From positions 62,282 through 126,281 of the forward strand of contig JAAYHC010000068.1 in assembly GCA_012735535.1 (NCBI GenBank): DNA of 64,000 bases, in the 5' to 3' direction. The DNA is from Bacillota bacterium (lineage in GTDB: Bacteria; Bacillota; UBA5301). The position numbers were made by a program, and so were the translations under genes. The notes under the pieces were generated by a model. It ran no database searches and was not told where the DNA came from. It worked only from the letters and a program-made list of their open reading frames with translations. Shown here in pieces: positions 12,474-22,554 of this stretch. Numbering within the stretch: the first letter of the stretch is position 1; the number at the start of each line of letters is the position of its first letter.

Positions 12474-14150
12474 TTACGCCGTTTCGGACTGGCGATCCGT
12501 TGTCTCTTCAGCAACAAGTTGATTGGCTATTTCACGTAGTTTGTACTTCTGAATCTTCCCGGAGGTGGTCATCGGAAACTCGGTCACAAACCGGAGATAC
12601 CGCGGCACTTTGTGCCGGGAGATGCGTTTACGCAAATACTCGAGTATCTCCTCTTCAACCGCCTCTACATCAGGTTTCAGCTTCACAAAAGCGAAAACTT
12701 CTTCCCCGTAAACCTGGCTCTGCACGCCGACCACCTGTGCCTCCGAAACTTTCGGGTGCTTGTGCAGATATTCCTCAACCTCGCGCGGGTAAATGTTTTC
12801 GCCGCCACGGATAATCATATCTTTGATCCGTCCAACGATCTGGTAATACCCGTTTTCATCAACACAAGCCAGATCACCGGTATGCAGCCAACCCTCTTCA
12901 TCAATAGCCGCAGCCGTTGCCTGGGGGTCTTTATAATAACCTTTCATTACATGATAGCCACGTGTGCATAATTCGCCAGGCTGACCTGGTCCAAGCTCAC
13001 GACCGGTTTCGGGATCGATGATCTTAACTTCAACGTGAGGCATAGCTCTACCAACCGTGGATACTCGTAGTTCTACCGGGTCGGTGGTATCGGTCATCGT
13101 AATTGCCGGCGAGGCCTCTGTCTGACCATAGGTGATCGTAATCTCACGCGCTCCCATCCGTTCCATAACCTCACGCATTACCTCTTCAGGGCAAGGCGAT
13201 CCGGCCATAATACCGGTGCGAAGCGTGGATAACTTAGTCTTGGCAAAGTTGGGGTGTTCGAGCATGGTGATAAACATGGTCGGAACCCCGTGCACAGCGG
13301 TGCAACGTTCCTGTTCAATTACTTCTAACGTCCGCCGTGGGCTGAAATGATCGAGGGCTACGATCGTACTGCCATGCGTCACGCAAGCCATGATACCAAG
13401 TACGCAACCAAAACAATGGAAAAAGGGTACCGGAATACACAAACGATCCCAGGCGGTCAATTTCATCTTTTCGCCAATCTGAAATCCGTTATTAACGATA
13501 TTATGGTGAGTTAGCATCACGCCCTTGGGGAAACCGGTCGTTCCTGAAGTGTACTGGATGTTGACAACGTCATCCCAGCTCAGCTCCGCTTCGCGCGCGG
13601 CCAACTCGCGATCCGAGATCTTGCTGGCTAAGCTCAGAAAATCAGCCCATTTGAGCATACCGACAGCTGGCTGGTCGCCGATTTTAATCACGCGTTTCAG
13701 CTTAGGCAGAGCAGCACTCTGCAAATTGCCCGGTTGGCAAGAGAGCAGTTCCGGACAGAGTTCAGTCACCGTTTGCACATAATTAACGTCTTTGAAGCCA
13801 TCAATGACAAATAATGTGGTCACATCGGCCTGTCTGAGCAAATACTCCAGCTCAAACAATTTGTAGTTGGTGTTAATGGTAACCAAGACCGCGCCCATCA
13901 TTGCTGTCGCAAACTGGAGTTCCAGCCACTCCGGAACATTCGTCGACCAGACGGCAACATGATCCCCTTTTTCTACTCCCACGGCCATTAAAGCCTTGGC
14001 TACTACGCGACAGCGCTGTTCAAACTCGCGATAAGTCCACCGCACCCCCTGGTCCGGAAAAACGGCGGCCTCATTATCGGGAAACTCCGCGCAGATTCGG
14101 CTCAACATTCCGCCAATAGTACAGTCCATCAGCTCTACATCTCTACTCAC
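12474..14150 (-). CDS. AMP-dependent synthetase/ligase (acyl-CoA synthetase family)
   Basis: 558 aa with the IQYTSGTTGFPKGV AMP-binding motif. GTG start at 14150 with AGGAGG upstream; an alternative ATG lies at 14129. Confidence 0.85.
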   Translation of the reverse strand: MSRDVELMDCTIGGMLSRICAEFPDNEAAVFPDQGVRWTYREFEQRCRVVAKALMAVGVEKGDHVAVWSTNVPEWLELQFATAMMGAVLVTINTNYKLFELEYLLRQADVTTLFVIDGFKDVNYVQTVTELCPELLSCQPGNLQSAALPKLKRVIKIGDQPAVGMLKWADFLSLASKISDRELAAREAELSWDDVVNIQYTSGTTGFPKGVMLTHHNIVNNGFQIGEKMKLTAWDRLCIPVPFFHCFGCVLGIMACVTHGSTIVALDHFSPRRTLEVIEQERCTAVHGVPTMFITMLEHPNFAKTKLSTLRTGIMAGSPCPEEVMREVMERMGAREITITYGQTEASPAITMTDTTDPVELRVSTVGRAMPHVEVKIIDPETGRELGPGQPGELCTRGYHVMKGYYKDPQATAAAIDEEGWLHTGDLACVDENGYYQIVGRIKDMIIRGGENIYPREVEEYLHKHPKVSEAQVVGVQSQVYGEEVFAFVKLKPDVEAVEEEILEYLRKRISRHKVPRYLRFVTEFPMTTSGKIQKYKLREIANQLVAEETTDRQSETA

Positions 14151-14545: not shown

Positions 14546-15082
14546 TTAAGATGTCTTCGATGTTACCGACCTTGGACGCCGTGCCAAGTTCTGACTAAAC
14601 TGCACTACCGGTTGGAGAACGGCGATACCAATGGCGTTTATTGCAATCGCCGGGATAACAACGGTAATATAAAGAGCGCTAAAGCTACCCGGCAAGCCAA
14701 CAATCAGAGCCGCAGAACCCAAAAAGACCAATCCGCTTAAAGCGGTGCCGACAATTGTAATAATCTCCGCCCGGACAATCGGCGACAAAGAAGCGGGCAA
14801 AGAACGTAAAATCAAATAAACAATGCTGGCGGTAACTGCTTTATCGATGATGTTCGGCAACTGGCCTCCCGGAAAAGTAGAGGTAATTGCAGCCAACACC
14901 CCACCCAACAAGCCGGTGACCAGTACCATTTTATAATCATCATGTTTGAGCAACAGAGCGATAAACATCATCAGCAGAAGTGTATCGGGTTTCATCCCAA
15001 ATAACAGCGGGGGGGTGATGAAATGTAAAATATACCCGATAGCCAATAACAACGCAACCTGAATACCATCACGAACTTGCAT
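14546..15082 (-). CDS. small polytopic membrane transporter, TrpP-like / ECF S-component-like
   Basis: 178 aa, 5-6 predicted TM helices, conserved ...FPGGQLPNIIDK... block. Confidence 0.5.
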   Translation of the reverse strand: MQVRDGIQVALLLAIGYILHFITPPLLFGMKPDTLLLMMFIALLLKHDDYKMVLVTGLLGGVLAAITSTFPGGQLPNIIDKAVTASIVYLILRSLPASLSPIVRAEIITIVGTALSGLVFLGSAALIVGLPGSFSALYITVVIPAIAINAIGIAVLQPVVQFSQNLARRPRSVTSKTS

Positions 15083-15149: not shown

Positions 15150-15178
15150 AGTATATCACATCGGTTCCAATCTGACAA
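15150..15178 (-). promoter_or_regulatory. sigma-A-type promoter for the TrpP-like gene
   Basis: Minus-strand TTGTCA, 17 nt, TATACT. Overlaps the stop codon of the upstream gene. Followed by an RBS AGGAGTGG. Confidence 0.5.
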
Positions 15179-16607
15179 TAATTAATTGTTTAGCTTTTTC
15201 CTCCCTATCTTGGTTGATACTAAACTTTTGAGCAGGGTTGACATACTGGATCGCCGGAGCCTCGGCCGGAGTTAATACAGCTTGCCACAAGTCCGGGGCG
15301 ACAAGTTTCTCAGTCGCGGCGTTTTCGTAGTCACGTTTAGAGAAAAAATCTTCACGATGCGTAACTGCTTCCAGCTCGACCACCAAACGCTGGCGAGCAC
15401 TTAATTTATCAGCTAGTTCACGGGCAACTTCAGTGCCACGGCTCTCCTGACACAGGGTAAAGACCCTGTTGTTGGCCTCACCCAGCTGGGCTTGCAAACC
15501 TTGTGGCGACGCCTTCTGCCAAGCCTTCGTATAACGATCTAAACGATAGTCCAGCTCAGCGCGGATTCGATCAGCCTCTTGTTGGGCGTAATATTTCCTG
15601 AGCAGTTCGGCCTCATCAGTACCGGCCAAATGTTTTTTCAGTTCTTTCTTGGTCCGACGTAAGTCAGTTTTAGCGTCCAGCAGTTGATCTTGACAATCAA
15701 AGTACTGATCGGCTCCGGCTTTATTTTTCCGGTACCAGACTGCGGCAAAAGCCAAGAGACCGACGCCAACAATCGCTGAGCCAATCAACAGTTCGCCCAG
15801 ATGAAAACCTAGATACCAGCCGATTACTGTGAGAATGAGCAGACTCAGACCTAGCCAAAACATGGAAAGTGCACGGCGATAGCCGTCGTACTCGGGCATC
15901 AGTGCGGCAATTTTACTGTTCAAATCCGCTATTTGCTCCTCGAACCGGTTAATTCGTTCTTTTATTTCTTCAAGTTCCGCGATATATTCCGGCTTAACCG
16001 GGGAGCCAATTATACCTTGCACCGAAGCGGCAAATTTTTCCGTTTGTTCCTGGACTTGACAGACTTTGGCCCATAATAACCGGCGCATCCCGTTAATATG
16101 CGCGATTTCTCGCTGCAAGGCGCAAACGTTGTCCACCTCTTGCCGTAGGTTTTCAACAGCCTCACCGGTCAAGGCGGTGATCGCTTCTTCCATGGCAGCG
16201 AGTTTGCTCAAAAAACCAGTCGCGGTTTGGGTAGGCTCGCCTTGATTTAGCACCAACAGATTGTGCAACTGAGCCGGCGATGTGACACCCCACTTGCTGG
16301 CGATCAGATGGGCTAAATCGGTGATCGTCTCCGGAAGCCGTCCGTCCTGTGACAGGTGTTCCCCCTCAGCATCCAGGCGATACACCCAGGTTGTTTCATC
16401 AGATTCGACAAACTTCAAGGTGACAAAGTCTTCCGGTTGCAGGGTCAAACTCTCCGGTGCAAATACAACCTTGGTGAACAGAGCAAAGTCTTCTGTGCCG
16501 AGCTCCAGCGGTTTATCCGGCGAAAGTTCAAACCTCGCCCTGCTGTTTTCAAGCTGATATTGAAAACAAACCAACTTCAATTTACCCCACCACCCACAGT
16601 ACTTCAT
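15156..16607 (-). CDS. hypothetical coiled-coil membrane protein (two central TM helices), third gene of the SNF2 operon
   Basis: 483 aa with long heptad-like charged stretches (EELEEIKERINRFEEQIADLNSKIAAL; KTDLRRTKKELKKHL) flanking a hydrophobic hairpin (LSMFWLGLSLLILTVIGWYLGFHLGELLIGSAIVGVGLLAFAAVWY). Confidence 0.6.
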   Translation of the reverse strand: MKYCGWWGKLKLVCFQYQLENSRARFELSPDKPLELGTEDFALFTKVVFAPESLTLQPEDFVTLKFVESDETTWVYRLDAEGEHLSQDGRLPETITDLAHLIASKWGVTSPAQLHNLLVLNQGEPTQTATGFLSKLAAMEEAITALTGEAVENLRQEVDNVCALQREIAHINGMRRLLWAKVCQVQEQTEKFAASVQGIIGSPVKPEYIAELEEIKERINRFEEQIADLNSKIAALMPEYDGYRRALSMFWLGLSLLILTVIGWYLGFHLGELLIGSAIVGVGLLAFAAVWYRKNKAGADQYFDCQDQLLDAKTDLRRTKKELKKHLAGTDEAELLRKYYAQQEADRIRAELDYRLDRYTKAWQKASPQGLQAQLGEANNRVFTLCQESRGTEVARELADKLSARQRLVVELEAVTHREDFFSKRDYENAATEKLVAPDLWQAVLTPAEAPAIQYVNPAQKFSINQDREEKAKQLIIVRLEPM

Positions 16608-16624
16608 CCATTTCTATTTATCGT

Positions 16625-18010
16625 TCAATCGAGAATTTCCTCTCCTGACAGAAGGTTCACACAACAGGGACAGACTGCAGGGCCACAACGGCAGCACAAA
16701 AGGCAATCCGTACTGCTCGTCGCAGACGGCAACAGACAGGAATACCGGCAGTACTGGCAAATTTTCTGCCCACATCCGGGACAAACGGCGGCTGGAAACA
16801 TGGTAGGCTGCCCGCACACTTCACAGACCTCAGCGCATCTGGAACATAACAGCCCTGCCTCAGAAGTTATCATCAGGTCATAAGTTGGGCGCTCACACCT
16901 CTGACACTGTAGGTCCAGCCAAGCATCAGCACAAAAATCGTACACCAGTCTAATCCTTTCGCACTCGTTCAACCGGCTTTCTACGGTGAACACAGCTCGC
17001 GGTAGGTACACGCGGGCTGCAGAAACAAGAGTGACCAGTGCCTGCGGAGTGTATTTCCTCCTTAGCTCATGCAGACGCTTACTTTTTTCCCTGGCTAACA
17101 TTTGCCCGTACCGACTGCAGCGATCTTTTTCGTACTGGATTTGTTGTCGATAATCCTCTAGTCGACTATTGAAAAGCTCCCTGGTTTGCGCCGTTTTGGC
17201 CAGGGCGACCCGGACTTCGAGTACGGCTGCTTTGTGCAATAACTCGTATAAACGTTTCATTTCTTCGCGTAACAAAGTATCGTAATACTCGTCCAAGACT
17301 TGCTCTTCGCATTTAAGCCGAGCCAATTGTTCTTTTTCAAAGGCAGAAAAAGACTCTAAAATCCAGCGGTGGAGGAAAAGGCAGGCTTGCCGATAAAGCT
17401 GGAAAGTCCGGTAATCTGTCTCACGGAACCAGCTCAAGTTGGCTAAATGCGTGTCGAGTAAACTTCCTTTCTCTTTATAGAGTCGAGGGTATCTCCTCCG
17501 GTCCGGCAAGGGACGAAAGCCCTCCGGTAAACTGCACAGCCCCTTCGGCAGCTCCCAGATTTCCACTTGATCAGTTTCCGGATCGGCCGCCAGACTGATG
17601 AGCAAATCTTTACGCAGATCGGCAAGCAAAGACAGGCGAAAGAGAAAAACCAGCTTGGCATGGTAGATTATCGTCGGTTGCCGGGCTATAAGATGGACAC
17701 CTTTCACCGGTATGCGCGCCAGCTTCTCTCGAAAAACTGCGTAGTCTTTCGCCGATAAAGGATAAATTAGATTGGCGGCCCAACCTTGGCTCCGGGCGGA
17801 ACTGATCAAACGGTCCAGTACCGGGTGGCCGTAGGTGATAAACTCGGCCGAATCAGCGCCGATCAGGTCAGGCTGATGAGTATACGTCACCGGCTCACCG
17901 TCGAACCAAAAGCGGAAGACATTTTCGCCAATCCTCTCGCGTTCGATGCCCTGATAGTGACAGAATAATTCGATGAACCGGGCAACATCCGAACAACCTG
18001 TACCACTCAT
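16625..18010 (-). CDS. hypothetical protein with a C-terminal cluster of CxxC zinc-ribbon motifs
   Basis: 461 aa. The C-terminus carries CQRC, CSRC, CEVC, CPGC, CQYC, CLLCCRC and CPCC. 4-nt ATGA overlap with the helicase gene. Confidence 0.6.
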   Translation of the reverse strand: MSGTGCSDVARFIELFCHYQGIERERIGENVFRFWFDGEPVTYTHQPDLIGADSAEFITYGHPVLDRLISSARSQGWAANLIYPLSAKDYAVFREKLARIPVKGVHLIARQPTIIYHAKLVFLFRLSLLADLRKDLLISLAADPETDQVEIWELPKGLCSLPEGFRPLPDRRRYPRLYKEKGSLLDTHLANLSWFRETDYRTFQLYRQACLFLHRWILESFSAFEKEQLARLKCEEQVLDEYYDTLLREEMKRLYELLHKAAVLEVRVALAKTAQTRELFNSRLEDYRQQIQYEKDRCSRYGQMLAREKSKRLHELRRKYTPQALVTLVSAARVYLPRAVFTVESRLNECERIRLVYDFCADAWLDLQCQRCERPTYDLMITSEAGLLCSRCAEVCEVCGQPTMFPAAVCPGCGQKICQYCRYSCLLPSATSSTDCLLCCRCGPAVCPCCVNLLSGEEILD

Positions 18011-19761
18011 GAACCTACCCCCAACAAACCATCGGTAAATGACTGCAACTCCCGATACTCTGAGATGCGGCGGACTATCTGGTCGACGATATCATCACCT
18101 TCTTTGGCCCCACTGTCGGCCACCCCGAAAAACCGGTCGGCAATCTGCTTCTCCAGACTCAAGCCGCCGGCCGCAATAATGGCCTCAACGTCCCCAACCA
18201 CATCCGAAAAAAGGCGCAGCTTTTCGTCTAATAATTGTAAGACATATTCCTCAATGGTATTGGCTGCAATGAGGTTAATTATCTGCACATCATGCTGTTG
18301 CCCGAGGCGGTGCAGGCGTCCGATTCTTTGCTCAACGCGCATCGGATTCCAGGGCAAGTCATAGTTAACCAGGACATGGCAGAACTGCAAGTTGCGCCCC
18401 TCCCCACCAGACTCGGTGCTAATCATGATCTGGCTCCGTTGACGAAAATTGGCCACGGCAGCATCTTTTTCCGCCAAAGATAAACCGCCGTGAAAAATCG
18501 TAGTGTTAAAACCTTCCGCCTCCAGCCTTTGGGCCAGATAGTCTTGGGTTCGCCGAAACTCGGTAAAGACCAGTATTTTCGTTCCCATCTTGCGCGCAAT
18601 TTTAAGGAGCTGCGTAAGCTTAGCAAAGTCGTTTAGTTCGCTGCCAATGCTAATCGCCCGTTGGATGGCGGCTCGTTCGGCAGCTGGTAAGTCCCTTTCT
18701 CTGACGAGCAACTGTTCTAACGAGGCCACCGCAGCTTGCGGGGAACTACATACTTCCCGCGCCATGACAATTAAGGGCAGAATCGTCTGGCGCTTCTGGT
18801 TGCGCTGTCGGTAAACTGCGCGCAAACCACTCACCGCAGCCGCCATAAATTCTCGCTCCCCGACGGTTGGCTGGACGACTTGCGTACTCACCACGCGCTT
18901 GGGCAGCTTGAGCAGCGTTTCGCGTCGATTTGACCGCACCATCACCTGGCCAAGTAAGTTTTTTAGCTTTTCTACGTTTTTCGGCGTCCGCTTATCCAGG
19001 ACAAACTCTTGTTTGAATTCACGGAAGGTTTTGAGTTGTCCCGGTTTGAGCAAAGTGATGAGGTTATACAATTCCCGTAGATCGTTCTGGACCGGCGTCG
19101 CAGTGAGCAGCAATAAAAATGTCTTTTGTAGCCCGTTAACAAACTGCCAGTTCACCGTCGATTTATTCTTTAACTTATGGGCCTCATCAACCACGACGAG
19201 GTCATACCGGTTTTGCAACAACTTGCTGCGCTGAGGTTCTCTTTTGGCATAGTCAATTGAGACCAGTAACAGGTCTTCCTGCCAGGAAACAGAGCCATCT
19301 TGAACTTTAAACGGAATTTTCAACCTATTGACCAGTTCTTCGTACCACTGGGTAACCAATGAGGCCGGCACGAGGAGCAAGATCCGTTTGACCAAGGAGC
19401 GCAGTAAATACTCTTTCATAATTATTCCGGCCTCAATCGTTTTACCCAAACCGACCTCATCGGCCAAGACCGCGCGTCCCCGCAGCTCTCTGAGCACCTT
19501 TAGGACGGTCGCTTGCTGATGTGGGTAGAGGACTATTTCCGGTAATGCTTCCAAAGCCAAAAGCCGGTCAAAACCGGTTTGCAGTGAAAGTTTGTTTGCG
19601 GCTTGATTGAGTAAATAATGCCCGATTGAGGAGTATTCCTGCCAGACCAATTTGGCCAAGACCCGATTATTAACTTCGTTGAAATATATCTCCATTGCTG
19701 ACTTCCTCCAGGGGTAGTTTCCCCTGTTTAGCTGGGAAGATTCGGTTCGCGAAGATTCCAA
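18007..19761 (-). CDS. SNF2-family ATPase/helicase, minimal core (SNF2_N plus Helicase_C)
   Basis: Motifs LADEVGLGKT, VVVDEAHKLKN, LLLTATPVQN, STESGGEGRNLQ, QRIGRLHRLGQ. The track ORF starts with TTG at 19761. The ATG at 19695 (MEIYFNE), with a GGAGG 9 nt upstream, is the likelier start. Confidence 0.9.
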   Translation of the reverse strand: MESSRTESSQLNRGNYPWRKSAMEIYFNEVNNRVLAKLVWQEYSSIGHYLLNQAANKLSLQTGFDRLLALEALPEIVLYPHQQATVLKVLRELRGRAVLADEVGLGKTIEAGIIMKEYLLRSLVKRILLLVPASLVTQWYEELVNRLKIPFKVQDGSVSWQEDLLLVSIDYAKREPQRSKLLQNRYDLVVVDEAHKLKNKSTVNWQFVNGLQKTFLLLLTATPVQNDLRELYNLITLLKPGQLKTFREFKQEFVLDKRTPKNVEKLKNLLGQVMVRSNRRETLLKLPKRVVSTQVVQPTVGEREFMAAAVSGLRAVYRQRNQKRQTILPLIVMAREVCSSPQAAVASLEQLLVRERDLPAAERAAIQRAISIGSELNDFAKLTQLLKIARKMGTKILVFTEFRRTQDYLAQRLEAEGFNTTIFHGGLSLAEKDAAVANFRQRSQIMISTESGGEGRNLQFCHVLVNYDLPWNPMRVEQRIGRLHRLGQQHDVQIINLIAANTIEEYVLQLLDEKLRLFSDVVGDVEAIIAAGGLSLEKQIADRFFGVADSGAKEGDDIVDQIVRRISEYRELQSFTDGLLGVGS

Positions 19762-19830
19762 ATACTTGGCTGTAAAAATAAGGAGGACTGCCTTGCTAAG
19801 AAAGAGAAAGATACCAAGTCAAATCTTTTA

Positions 19831-20760
19831 GTGGAGGTTGTGTTGATGAGCAAAACCCTTAAGATGTGTCTGTTGGTTGCGCTATTTACCATTGTTTCCA
19901 TTGTTCCAGCATTCGCCGGCACATTCACCGATGAGTCAGGTCGCACTGTAACCGTTCCTGACAAGCCTGAGCGCATTGTCGCTCTTTCCCCGTGGGTAGT
20001 TGAGATTCTGTTTGCTTTAGATTATCCGCCGGTTGGCCGTCCATCTTCAGCCGTCTATCCGGAGGCGGCTCTGCAGGTAGAGGCTCATGGTACCTCTTAT
20101 CGATTGAATTACGAGCGTATCATGGCCCTCCGGCCGGATTTGATTATCGGCAACAACAATTTACATCGTGCTTTCTTGGATCAATTGGCTTCGATCAATG
20201 CCCCGGTCTTGCTATACGATATTGATAGCTATCAAGACGTACTCGAGAAGGTTACTATCCTTGGCCAAATCACCGGCCGAACCGAAGAAGCTGCCAAAAT
20301 CAATGCCGATCTTGAAGCTCGCTTAGCGAAGCTCACCAGCAAGCTTCCCAAGAAGAAGCTGACGGCGGTTGTCTTGGTGGGTAGCGCCGAGGCCTTTTCC
20401 GTAGCCAAAGGCAATAGCTATATCGGCAACCAGTTAAAAATTCTCGGTGTCGAAAATATCGGTGATCGCGGCCCCGAGCACCGACCTGGCTACACCAGGC
20501 TGAGCTTGGAGTATATCGCCCAGGCCAACCCGGATGTGATCTTCGCCGTTAAACCGGAAGTAGATCCAAATAATCCGACCTCCGCCCTTGACGGGTATGA
20601 CAAGAACCCGCTGTGGGGCAGTCTCGCTGCGGTGCAAAACGGTAGAGTTTATGAGCTCGACCCGGTCATCTCCTTTATGAATCCCGGTCCTAGAATAATC
20701 GACTCCTTAGAATTCATGGCACAGTGCCTCTATCCGGAGGTATTCACAGGTGAGAAATAA
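19831..20760 (+). CDS. ABC transporter substrate-binding lipoprotein, iron-siderophore/cobalamin (FecB/BtuF) family
   Basis: 309 aa with a signal peptide/lipobox-like N-terminus and a periplasmic-binding-protein class 8 pattern. Confidence 0.8.
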   Translation: MEVVLMSKTLKMCLLVALFTIVSIVPAFAGTFTDESGRTVTVPDKPERIVALSPWVVEILFALDYPPVGRPSSAVYPEAALQVEAHGTSYRLNYERIMALRPDLIIGNNNLHRAFLDQLASINAPVLLYDIDSYQDVLEKVTILGQITGRTEEAAKINADLEARLAKLTSKLPKKKLTAVVLVGSAEAFSVAKGNSYIGNQLKILGVENIGDRGPEHRPGYTRLSLEYIAQANPDVIFAVKPEVDPNNPTSALDGYDKNPLWGSLAAVQNGRVYELDPVISFMNPGPRIIDSLEFMAQCLYPEVFTGEK

Positions 20761-21775
20761 CAGCGTTTCCACTTTCGTCGGCCCGAAACGACGGCGGCAG
20801 TGGATAACCTTAATGGCGCTGGCGGCGATGGCCATTTTGGCTATCACCGCCAGCATAAGCATTGGTCCGGTTAGCATACCGTTTCTCAAAGTGTGGGAAT
20901 TATTGGCCAAACCCCCGGTACAATCTGATATCGCGTCGCAGATTGTCTGGAACATTAGGCTTCCGCGCACGCTAGTCGGATGCTTGGTCGGGGCTGGGTT
21001 GGCGTTATCGGGTGCCCTCTTACAAGGCGTGATGCGCAACCCATTGGCCGACCCGCATATTATTGGGGTTTCCTCCGGCGCCGGATTTGCCGCAGTAACT
21101 GCCATGATCGTCATTCCTAATTTTCCGCCTTCTTTGGTGCCCGCGGCTGCATTCGTCGGCGCAATGGCCAGCGGTGTTTTAGTCTATGCTCTGGCGTGGC
21201 GGGCCGGGGTTTCGCCGATGCGGATGATTCTGTCCGGTGTGGCCGTTTCTGCACTCATGAATGCCGGTACATCGGCCGTCTTAAACATCTTCAGCGAAAA
21301 CGTACAGTCCGTGATGAGTTGGTTGGCCGGCGGCTTGGCCGGACGCGGTTGGCATCACTGGCACCAGCTCTGGCCGTACATACTAGTAGCTGGTACAATT
21401 GCCCTCTTGACCGGCAGACAAGTAAACGTCCTGCTATTGGGAGACGAGATGGCAACCGGTTTGGGGATGCGCGTGGAACGGGTGCGAATGTTGCTGATCG
21501 GGTTGGCCTGCATTCTAGCTGCGGCCGCGGTCAGTGTATCCGGCCTCATTGGCTTTGTCGGCTTGATTGTGCCCCACATCATCCGCTTGATAGCCGGTTC
21601 CGATTACCGCTTTCTTTTGCCGGCTTCAGCGTTGGGCGGCGCTACTTTGTTGGTATTGGCCGATATTGCCGCCCGGATGGTGCTCGACCCAATTGAGTTG
21701 CCGGTCGGTATTTTGACCGCCTGCTTGGGCGCTCCATTCTTCCTCTACCTACTCAGAAGGAGGACGACACATTGA
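20750..21775 (+). CDS. ABC transporter permease, FecCD/BtuC family
   Basis: 341 aa, polytopic. Overlaps the flanking genes. Confidence 0.85.
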   Translation: MRNNSVSTFVGPKRRRQWITLMALAAMAILAITASISIGPVSIPFLKVWELLAKPPVQSDIASQIVWNIRLPRTLVGCLVGAGLALSGALLQGVMRNPLADPHIIGVSSGAGFAAVTAMIVIPNFPPSLVPAAAFVGAMASGVLVYALAWRAGVSPMRMILSGVAVSALMNAGTSAVLNIFSENVQSVMSWLAGGLAGRGWHHWHQLWPYILVAGTIALLTGRQVNVLLLGDEMATGLGMRVERVRMLLIGLACILAAAAVSVSGLIGFVGLIVPHIIRLIAGSDYRFLLPASALGGATLLVLADIAARMVLDPIELPVGILTACLGAPFFLYLLRRRTTH

Positions 21776-22554
21776 TTCTCGCAGCAAAGAACATTTCATT
21801 ATCTTACGAATCGACAATCATTGTGCCGGAACTGAGCATATTCATCGAATCCGGCGAGATTGTGACCTTCATCGGTCCTAATGGTTCCGGTAAGTCCACT
21901 ATTTTAAAAGCTTTAGCTCGCTATCTCAAAGCGCGCAGCGGGGTAGTCTACCTCAACGGCCAGGATATTCAAAGCATGTCGACGAAGAAAGTGGCTCAGC
22001 AGTTGGCGATTCTCCCGCAGACTCCCCAGGCCCCGGCCGATCTAACAGTTGTTGAGCTGGTTAGCCGCGGCCGCACACCGCACTTGAACTGGTGGCAACG
22101 CAGCGGGGCCAATGATTACGAAGTCGTCCGCTGGGCCTTAGAGCAAACCAAGACCACTCATCTGGCCGACCGCCTGGTTGGTACTCTCTCCGGTGGTGAA
22201 CGGCAACGTGCCTGGATTGCGATGGCCTTAGCCCAATCACCACAGGTTCTTTTGTTGGACGAACCAACAACTTATCTTGATATCTGCCATCAACTGGAGG
22301 TCATGGAGCTAATCAGCAGACTTAACCGTGAGCTAGGCCTCACTGTAGTCATGGTCTTGCATGATATTAACCAGGCCGCGCGGTATAGTCATCGCCTGAT
22401 CGCTCTGAAAAACGGGACCATCATCAAACAAGGCCCGCCGCAGGAGATCTTAACCGAAGAGTTATTGACTGAGGTATTCAAAGTCAAAGCGCAGGTGAAA
22501 ACCGACAGCGCCTCTGGCTGCCCGGTCTGTCTACCCTACGGCATTGTTGAGTAG
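21772..22554 (+). CDS. ABC transporter ATP-binding protein (FecE/BtuD-like)
   Basis: Walker A GPNGSGKST, signature LSGGERQR, Walker B LLLDEPT. Confidence 0.9.
   Translation: MILAAKNISLSYESTIIVPELSIFIESGEIVTFIGPNGSGKSTILKALARYLKARSGVVYLNGQDIQSMSTKKVAQQLAILPQTPQAPADLTVVELVSRGRTPHLNWWQRSGANDYEVVRWALEQTKTTHLADRLVGTLSGGERQRAWIAMALAQSPQVLLLDEPTTYLDICHQLEVMELISRLNRELGLTVVMVLHDINQAARYSHRLIALKNGTIIKQGPPQEILTEELLTEVFKVKAQVKTDSASGCPVCLPYGIVE

Follow-up and report, generated by a model that had tools for sequence, protein, structure and literature searches.

What does a minimal Swi2/Snf2 ATPase do when its immediate neighbours are a cysteine-rich protein and a coiled-coil membrane protein? This question is raised by three consecutive minus-strand genes, here called g1, g2 and g3, in a 64,000-nucleotide (nt) stretch of a Bacillota bacterium contig (hereafter the window). 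A first-pass annotation made from the sequence alone had described them as a tightly coupled three-gene operon of unknown function, fitting either chromosome handling (such as sporulation-related DNA handling) or defence. Comparison with relatives found by searches (loci L001-L097 and proteins P0005-P0051) leads us to a different answer: the locus is not a new three-gene system but has at its core a two-gene unit that belongs with YqhH/YqhG, a family already known though poorly characterised. The function of YqhH and YqhG is poorly known. We consider it somewhat probable that g1 and g2 are the two halves of a split RapA-group Swi2/Snf2 remodeller, which acts probably on RNA polymerase (RNAP) and carries a membrane add-on, g3, in one clade.

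The SNF2 motor, its partner and their proposed relation to RapA

The first gene encodes a bare SNF2 motor, as had been claimed: the Pfam domains SNF2-rel_dom and Helicase_C cover most of the protein, the motifs quoted for it are present, and there is no N-terminal accessory domain. Its best match among PDB sequences is Escherichia coli RapA (5.5e-45; PDB 6BOG, 4S20, 8T0L). When compared with the NCBIfam RapA model (NF003426), g1 scores 233 bits against a cut-off of 576 and aligns only at positions 107-646 of 959, short of the full length, with ~25 residues preceding the part aligned to position 107; it corresponds to lobes 1 and 2 of RapA, minus the RapA N-terminal domain. Judged by these matches, g1 is predicted to be the core of an ATP-driven double-stranded-DNA translocase. 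Searches of g1-g3 against Pfam, NCBIfam and PADLOC revealed no domain of a nuclease, methylase or other effector, in agreement with the first description of the locus.

The second gene product, g2, matches nothing in Pfam (E <= 0.1), NCBIfam or PADLOC. Its N-terminal domain had been called uncharacterised, but the region turns out to be a divergent form of the YqhG family: an alignment of the five sequences of the g2 clade matches the YqhG alignment in hhalign at 98.7 % (E 1.7e-16, g2 residues 54-339). By this profile comparison, g2 is assigned to the YqhG superfamily as a divergent member. Only 2 of the 42 members of the g2 family reach Pfam PF11079 (YqhG), and P0030 passes the threshold of that model. 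In Paenibacillaceae, the partners are true YqhG proteins by the Pfam model (163-201 bits, gathering score 25), and g1 is 43-45 % identical to the SNF2 proteins encoded upstream of Pfam-YqhG genes in that family. Close relatives of g2 are few. A close-homologue search in 5.8 billion proteins gave four g2 clusters and two g3 clusters (P0005/P0006), and such a search using the 42-sequence g2 alignment returned almost nothing; when a g2 profile was run on 1.84 billion representatives, 247 relatives came up, of which 30 had E <= 1e-30.

The tail of g2 holds 16 cysteines that are invariant among orthologues and are mostly arranged as CxxC pairs, with up to four zinc sites possible. Not all of the g2/YqhG superfamily has this tail: the window clade, L008/9, L069, L077 and L090 carry it, and the Paenibacillus and Riflebacteria partners lack it. 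A profile check of g2 for a cryptic nuclease or SWIM fold, which the first-pass annotation had suggested, found neither and pointed to the YqhG family instead; Pfam SWIM gave no match, and the CxxC pairs come without the histidine signature of a SWIM zinc finger (CxCxnCxH). What had been presented as a new zinc-ribbon adaptor is thus a divergent YqhG-family protein, the usual neighbour of a short housekeeping or sporulation SNF2 protein, and not a SWIM-type partner.

How widespread is this pair? A scan of the g1-orthologue alignment against one genome per species gave 79 loci at 39-83 % identity, and we translated the open reading frames (ORFs) and searched them with profiles. Within Bacillota, these come from Clostridia-type metagenome-assembled genomes (MAGs), Paenibacillus, Chengkuizengella and Longirhabdus, and elsewhere from Riflebacteria, Eisenbacteria, Chloroflexota, Armatimonadota, a Cyanobacteria-labelled MAG, Deltaproteobacteria, Terriglobia and Myxococcota. 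In 71 loci the sequence extends 1 kb or more downstream, and in 58 of them the ORF immediately after the SNF2 gene is g2/YqhG-like; the other 13, which lack such a neighbour, belong to Chloroflexota and one Bacteroidota MAG. Distant g2 relatives have a SNF2 gene for ~570 amino acids (aa) directly upstream and no g3, and the pair without g3 occurs in more than 50 loci from many phyla. Examples are the orders SpoIIP-MurC-SNF2-g2-like followed by an MrfA-like DEAD/Helicase_C/MZB helicase (L008/L009), MurC-SNF2-g2-like (L010), and SNF2 followed by a 662-aa YqhG-like protein (L012). The neighbourhood survey that had been proposed therefore separates the two parts of the original idea: the pair alone is widespread, the trio occurs only in five syntenic lineages, and no defence island was seen. 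The idea of a conserved three-part machine does not survive this comparison, as g3 is confined to one narrow clade.

The two genes of the pair are also joined physically. In P0038 (987 aa; L097 158-3121) and P0047 (1007 aa), SNF2_N and Helicase_C are followed by a g2-like region in a single protein, and P0051 is a fragment of a third SNF2-g2 fusion, apparently a gene call that starts inside it. Together with the ATGA overlap of g1 and g2 and the frequency of the pair in the survey, these fusions uphold the claim of a tightly coupled unit around a minimal SNF2 motor, as far as g1 and g2 are concerned. It should be noted that yqhG was previously counted among the sporulation genes with the distribution 'all bacilli, no clostridia' (Galperin et al. 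2012, PMC3533761). YqhG-type partners extend beyond Bacilli to Clostridia-like Bacillota, Riflebacteria, Eisenbacteria, Armatimonadota, Terriglobia and others, and the remote homologues in Clostridia-type Bacillota and non-Firmicutes suggest that the 'no clostridia' pattern reflects limited detection sensitivity. Among the Chloroflexota loci (L054-L083, e.g., L062 7738-8943; Caldilineae and Chloroflexia), where the SNF2 gene has no detectable YqhG-like neighbour, the SNF2 ORFs reach a greater length (650-725 aa), and the function of the partner may reside in cis in them; five of these loci have downstream a highly conserved ~400-aa gene (63-73 % identity) that looks housekeeping.

Four Clostridia-type MAGs (L008, L016, L017 and L022) and L097 carry two SNF2-plus-partner pairs in one cluster. 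In pair A the g2-like partner has the Cys tail and is, in L097, fused to its SNF2 protein, while pair B runs convergently to it, with a partner of ~290-310 aa that in L097 matches Pfam YqhG directly. The Paenibacillus SNF2 proteins resemble pair B (51-53 %, ~565 bits) more than pair A (43 %, ~425-450 bits), whereas window g1 is 52 % identical to pair A, 48 % to pair B and 43 % to Paenibacillus. Based on these identities, we place the window pair in a sister ('A') lineage, paralogous to canonical YqhH/YqhG and not orthologous to it. The window pair resembles YqhH/YqhG in its short SNF2 protein (~560-600 aa), which consists of the core only, and in having the partner gene directly downstream. 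It differs in that g2 has a longer helical hairpin and an additional ~120-aa beta plus 16-Cys module, is not seen by the Pfam YqhG model, and is followed by g3. The analysis also sets apart a second, paralogous lineage whose partner bears a zinc-ribbon tail. In the two-pair clusters (L008 5290-14345, also L016, L017, L022 and L097), pairs A and B flank an MrfA-like helicase with DEAD, Helicase_C, WHD_HRQ1 and MZB domains and a hexapeptide-repeat protein, and this may be a DNA-repair-flavoured gene cluster.

The link to RapA comes from the fold of g2. Its AlphaFold2 model, built from the 42-sequence alignment, has a predicted local distance difference test score (pLDDT) of 90.0 and a predicted template modelling score (pTM) of 0.78, and consists of an alpha/beta domain (residues 1-150), a basic low-confidence linker (160-185), a very long helical hairpin (200-320) and long beta strands (323-365), after which the Cys-rich tail begins. 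Foldseek returned a single significant PDB match for this model, E. coli RapA (8t0l_F, E 1.1e-6, probability 1.00, 360 columns), the second-best match having an E of 0.12. As g1 covers RapA 107-646, we infer from the model that g2 corresponds to the part of RapA after the ATPase core, which is the simplest reading; the order found in the fusion proteins, ATPase core and then g2-like region, is the one that such a correspondence predicts. RapA as the only significant fold match and the fusions of SNF2 and partner suggest that the widespread two-gene units are split RapA-like enzymes. E. coli RapA is a single protein, while the window version is split into two genes and is without the N-terminal Tudor-like domain; RapA in turn is without the zinc-ribbon tail and the extended hairpin found in g2. 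In RapA, this Tudor-like domain (residues 1-109) contacts RNAP at the zinc-binding domain of beta' and at the flap tip, and auto-inhibits the ATPase (PMC8666675).

We propose that g1 and g2 would form a stable heterodimer equivalent to RapA minus its N-terminal domain, and that this heterodimer would pull DNA by ATP hydrolysis, thereby loosening or evicting a DNA-bound protein complex. The likeliest target would be a stalled or post-termination RNAP, as for RapA, and target recognition could come from the hairpin and zinc tail of g2 in place of the missing N-terminal domain. A heterodimer with RNAP as its target is also a testable hypothesis for the uncharacterised B. subtilis (Bacillus subtilis) pair yqhH-yqhG.

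A number of observations weigh against a split RapA-like enzyme that acts on RNAP. The fold match is a single one with low TM-scores (0.26 / 0.14), and the tool does not say which residues of RapA it aligned; such scores would be expected if the domain orientations differ, yet they limit the confidence that the model can give. Sequence-level similarity between g2 and RapA_C could not be established: the g2 profile finds no RapA among PDB sequences but only weak FYVE/RING/LIM-like matches (E about 2e-3), and the YqhG profile likewise finds no RapA, with weak FtsH matches only. The Pfam RapA_C match of one g2-family member may stem from a remnant of the SNF2 tail, as in P0051. A direct hhalign comparison of g2 with E. 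coli RapA 505-968 lends the link weak support, placing g2 8-72 on RapA ~715-791 with a shared A-x-F-I-T-[WY]-x-H-P, but at a probability of 3.7 %. Since g1 is without the RapA N-terminal domain, RNAP binding is not implied by homology, and since RapA-group SNF2 proteins also act in defence (DrmD, BrxHI, DpdE), the family alone does not fix the function. The window pair is a paralogue of YqhH/YqhG, hence B. subtilis phenotypes transfer to it only loosely. As for the membrane add-on, the adjacency of g3 is kept only in a wholly syntenic clade and so is no proof of a functional link, and the structural model of g3 is poor (pLDDT 55.5).

The g2-family matches to DrmD, RapA, DpdE and PLD models were traced to residues 1-105 of P0051, a remnant of the SNF2 core, and were rejected. 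In favour of a resemblance of g2 to RapA, P0019 and P0050 give weak matches to the final ~130 positions of the DrmD model (4e-4 to 1e-3).

The membrane protein encoded by the third gene

The product of g3 is helical and has a central hydrophobic hairpin of two helices flanked by RR and RKNK, much as the first-pass annotation had it (a coiled-coil protein with a membrane hairpin). Because basic residues flank the hairpin, both arms are predicted to be cytoplasmic. The protein has no usable match in Pfam, NCBIfam or PADLOC, and no secretion signal was found in it. Among 92 loci, the g3 profile matches the window clade only, and a search of 241 million metagenome records with g3 motifs added two loci, both with an L003-type g3: L094, which has the same SNF2-g2-g3-TrpP order, and a 1.5-kb contig holding only g3. 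The SNF2-g2-g3 order is found in five closely syntenic lineages (the window, L006/L014, L001, L003/L094 and L095). We conclude that g3 is a recent, clade-specific addition and an orphan family, and the only truly new element of the locus.

The AlphaFold2 model of g3, for which two sequences were admissible, is confident only at residues ~200-350 and has two long helices running into and out of the membrane hairpin. The conserved residues of g3 lie in the cytoplasmic arms (e.g., RRLLWAKVCQVQEQTEKF...GSPVKPE and LDRYTKAWQ) and not in the hairpin, which fits an anchor with protein-binding arms. With the ClyA-family toxins (XaxA/B, AhlB, MakA) and the two-helix SLATT proteins, g3 shares long antiparallel arms and a hydrophobic hairpin at the tip; it differs in the placement of its conserved residues and in having no secretion signal, and SMC arms and chemoreceptors match its model equally. 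Sub-threshold matches of g3 orthologues include SLATT_1 (0.014), SLATT_5 (0.037; 13.5 bits, cut-off 60) and the alpha-xenorhabdolysin A/XaxA family (0.0024, cut-off 125), and Foldseek of the low-confidence model returned MakA, AhlB, SmhB and XaxB as well as chemoreceptors and SMC arms, at TM-scores of 0.1-0.2. Going by the model, these fold matches appear to show a generic long-hairpin architecture only.

The trio had been placed in a low-synteny stretch, which is contradicted by a long syntenic block that all five lineages share: SpoIIP-MurC-ABC importer, then the trio, then TrpP-ligase-cation ATPase-YicC-RemA-Gmk-RpoZ-CoaBC. The importer is a three-gene FecCD-type ABC system on the opposite strand, the ligase is AMP-dependent and the cation ATPase is P-type. 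Identity of the window proteins to those of L006 is 84-94 % for the neighbours, 83 % for g1, 70 % for g2 and 64 % for g3; to those of L001 it is 66-84 %, 62 %, 45 % and 36 %, and to those of L003 it is 64-79 %, 61 %, 40 % and 32 %, respectively. The divergence of g1-g3 therefore tracks that of the neighbouring genes, with g2 (diverged to 40-70 % identity among these lineages) and g3 changing faster than their neighbours. Because the divergence runs parallel with that of the neighbours, we read it as vertical inheritance under weak constraint and not as the trace of a mobile island.

Is g3 part of the unit at all? It is conceivable, though in our judgement unlikely, that only g1 and g2 are functional together and that g3 is an unrelated lineage-specific membrane protein lying downstream by chance, just as trpP does. 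All other loci that carry the pair lack g3, the region is syntenic in all five g3 lineages, so that adjacency says little, and g3 has its own Shine-Dalgarno (SD) sequence after a gap of 35-45 nt, with no translational coupling. Nor do g3 and g2 resemble each other; descent of g3 as a duplicate of g2 was considered and rejected (hhalign probability 0.7 %). Chance placement is opposed by the observations to which support for a role of g3 is limited. Wherever context is present, g3 is seen nowhere but directly after g2, and no terminator or promoter-like site is predicted between the two genes; from the sequence, g3 is probably co-transcribed with g1-g2. Both g2 and g3 evolve fast, as the L001 identities given above illustrate. 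Finally, a basic motif in the g2 linker, GFRPLPDRRRxPR (residues 164-176, about 17483-17521, minus strand), is almost invariant in the g3-containing clade and absent from other clades; it sits in the low-confidence linker of the g2 model (pLDDT ~65) and could be a docking motif.

If g3 does belong with a split remodeller, its hairpin and two cytoplasmic arms might tether or regulate the complex at the cytoplasmic or forespore membrane, which is the weakest step of the proposed mechanism and a guess. That g3 is a genuine third subunit, i.e., an orphan ClyA/SLATT-like hairpin protein recruited by the SNF2/zinc-ribbon complex to make a membrane-coupled DNA/RNAP remodeller, seems to us improbable. 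Such a subunit could hold transcription or DNA at the cytoplasmic or forespore membrane in sporulation or, alternatively, belong to a device of the abortive-infection type whose motor sets off membrane disruption. To our knowledge, no bacterial Swi2/Snf2 ATPase is coupled to an integral membrane partner, and binding of g3 to the complex would make this the first membrane-coupled bacterial SNF2 system.

Sporulation, repair and defence as possible roles

The literature on the sister pair offers some guidance on function. In B. subtilis, the gene order is yqhH, yqhG, sinI, sinR (PMC6123443). PMC7385302 presents YqhH ('HepA') as a Swi2/Snf2 translocase that is poorly characterised and shares ~30 % identity with E. 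coli HepA/RapA, and groups it with RNAP-interacting translocases. The yqhH gene is transcribed by sigma-F, and insertions in it are under-represented at hour 5 of sporulation in transposon sequencing (PMC4703394); of eight such genes tested, seven were slow to form spores, the text of that study being silent on whether yqhH is among the seven. In its phyletic profile, YqhH correlates with sporulation (PMC8136486). Overall, this literature appears consistent with a role in transcription or other DNA transactions during stress and development. A function in sporulation, as proposed for the window locus, is plausible from the work on yqhH, but upstream of g1 no promoter of a sporulation type was recognised, and phyla that do not sporulate have the pair too.

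Part of the same literature can be read in another way, namely that the pair acts in DNA repair or in replication-transcription conflicts, for instance by clearing proteins from damaged DNA or remodelling stalled forks, rather than in RNAP recycling as such. A yqhH knockout of Bacillus thuringiensis is sensitive to UV, and YqhH there shows ATPase activity (PMC10054049); yqhG::Tn mutants are defective in the release of extracellular DNA and came from a screen that also yielded mfd and topA mutants (PMC3487849); and two pairs flank the MrfA-like DEAD/Helicase_C/MZB helicase in L008, L016, L017 and L022. All of this evidence is drawn, however, from the sister pair or from other genomes, and there are no repair genes near the window locus. 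Moreover, PMC7385302 reports that deletion of hepA/yqhH, unlike that of mfd, did not suppress the lethality of PcrA depletion. We therefore rate a repair function as rather doubtful, and continue to favour action on RNAP.

The remaining possibility is an anti-phage or anti-plasmid module, in which the SNF2/zinc-ribbon proteins sense foreign DNA and g3 is a membrane-disrupting effector of the SLATT or ClyA/Xax type. DrmD, BrxHI and DpdE belong to the same SNF2 subgroup as g1, are among its best PADLOC/NCBIfam matches and score against it about as RapA does. They are, in contrast to g1, single proteins of ~900-1300 aa with methylase, PLD nuclease, DrmA/B and PglZ partners, none of which lies near the window locus, and the scores of g1 stay below the cut-offs of the defence models (DrmD_b 238.7 vs 950, DrmD 230.4 vs 610, DpdE 215.5 vs 500). 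The PADLOC matches of g1 (BrxHI, DrmD, DpdE, ZorD) cover only core segments of models of 870-1290 positions, and neither g2 nor g3 has a meaningful PADLOC match. No g2 or g3 homologues were found in 50,697 phage or 72,556 plasmid records using tblastn. Although the fast evolution of g2 and g3 and the weak likeness of g3 to SLATT_1, SLATT_5, alpha-xenorhabdolysin A and alpha-pore-forming toxins would suit a defence role, we consider the defence module first proposed for this locus very improbable, given SNF2 matches that are core-only and far below cut-off, the absence of methylase, PLD, DrmA/B, BrxC/PglX/PglZ or dpd genes near the trio in the window and in five related loci, a housekeeping synteny whose divergence points to vertical descent, and fold matches of g3 that any long helical hairpin modelled with such low confidence would give.

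Gene starts, neighbourhood and transcription

The three genes are present, and co-directional on the minus strand, where they had been placed, with longest-ORF coordinates of 18007-19761, 16625-18010 and 15156-16607; the extents that we consider most likely are listed in Table 1. The length given earlier for g2 holds, and so does the ATGA overlap of g1 and g2 (...GGT TCA TGA / ATG AGT...), a mark of translational coupling, while the outer two gene starts had to be moved. For g1, GGAGG lies 9 nt before ATG 19695, and the orthologues measure 562-568 aa and all start at the matching MEI/MQ... position; we therefore take ATG 19695 as most likely the true start and TTG 19761 as probably not. Four g3 orthologues begin with M[KER]L..F.Y, whose equivalent in the window is TTG 16580 (MKLVCFQYQ...) with GGTGGGG just upstream, so that the start of g3, judged from the sequence, is most likely this codon with its own SD. 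The 17-nt gap without a strong SD, and the length of 483 aa, are consequently artefacts of the longest-ORF start at 16607; counted from TTG 16580 the gap is 44 nt, as compared with 35-45 nt in relatives.

Table 1. Coordinates of the features of the locus, numbered within the window.
Feature	Position	Strand	Basis or remark
g1, short Swi2/Snf2 ATPase, 562 aa	18007..19695	-	most likely start ATG 19695; SD, Pfam, orthologues (41-83 % identical, 79 loci)
g1 SNF2-rel_dom	about 18736-19515	-	Pfam 7e-34
g1 Helicase_C	about 18301-18624	-	Pfam 5e-23
g2, partner protein, 461 aa	16625..18010	-	ATGA overlap with g1
g2 YqhG-homology region, aa 54-339	16994-17851	-	hhalign; includes long helical hairpin, then beta segment
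g2 Cys-rich tail, aa 366-455	16646..16915	-	16 conserved Cys
g3, helical protein, 474 aa	15156..16580	-	most likely start TTG 16580; SD, orthologue N-termini
g3 two-helix membrane hairpin, aa 237-282	15735-15872	-	hydropathy
Divergent intergenic region, g1 to ABC substrate-binding gene	19696..19845		presumed site of the g1-g2-g3 promoter

The orthologous regions upstream of g1 were aligned. A promoter scan gave no sigma-70 match upstream of g1, and regular-expression patterns for sigma-A/F/G/E/K/H gave none in six orthologous loci, such pattern scans being weak evidence. The best sigma-70-like site of the region lies instead at 15150-15178 on the minus strand (TTGTCA-17-TATACT with an extended TG, 10/12 matches), where its span takes in the stop codon of g3, at 70 nt upstream of trpP; no terminator is predicted downstream of g3. 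This promoter-like site suggests that the transcription unit probably ends with g3 and that trpP probably has its own promoter.

In distant relatives the SNF2 gene starts 9 nt (L008) or 32 nt (L010) after murC, hence murC and the SNF2 gene probably form one operon there, which suggests vegetative co-expression in those genomes. In the window clade, the FecCD-type importer (19831-22554, plus strand) is inserted between murC and the SNF2 gene (cf. L008 3901-6996 and L010 985-4139). The ABC substrate-binding gene of this importer probably starts at ATG 19846 (MSKTLKM...), with GGAGG at 19833-19837, and probably not at the longest-ORF GTG 19831.

On the other side of the trio, a full-length T-box leader (RF00230; 14320-14534, minus strand, 140.8 bits, E 4.5e-32) sits between trpP (14546-15082) and the gene of the AMP-dependent ligase (12474-14150). 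From its position, it controls the ligase-like gene and not the tryptophan transporter. The model alignment gives CUC (Leu) as a candidate reading of its specifier, and a gene of the acyl-CoA-ligase type is an unusual T-box target.

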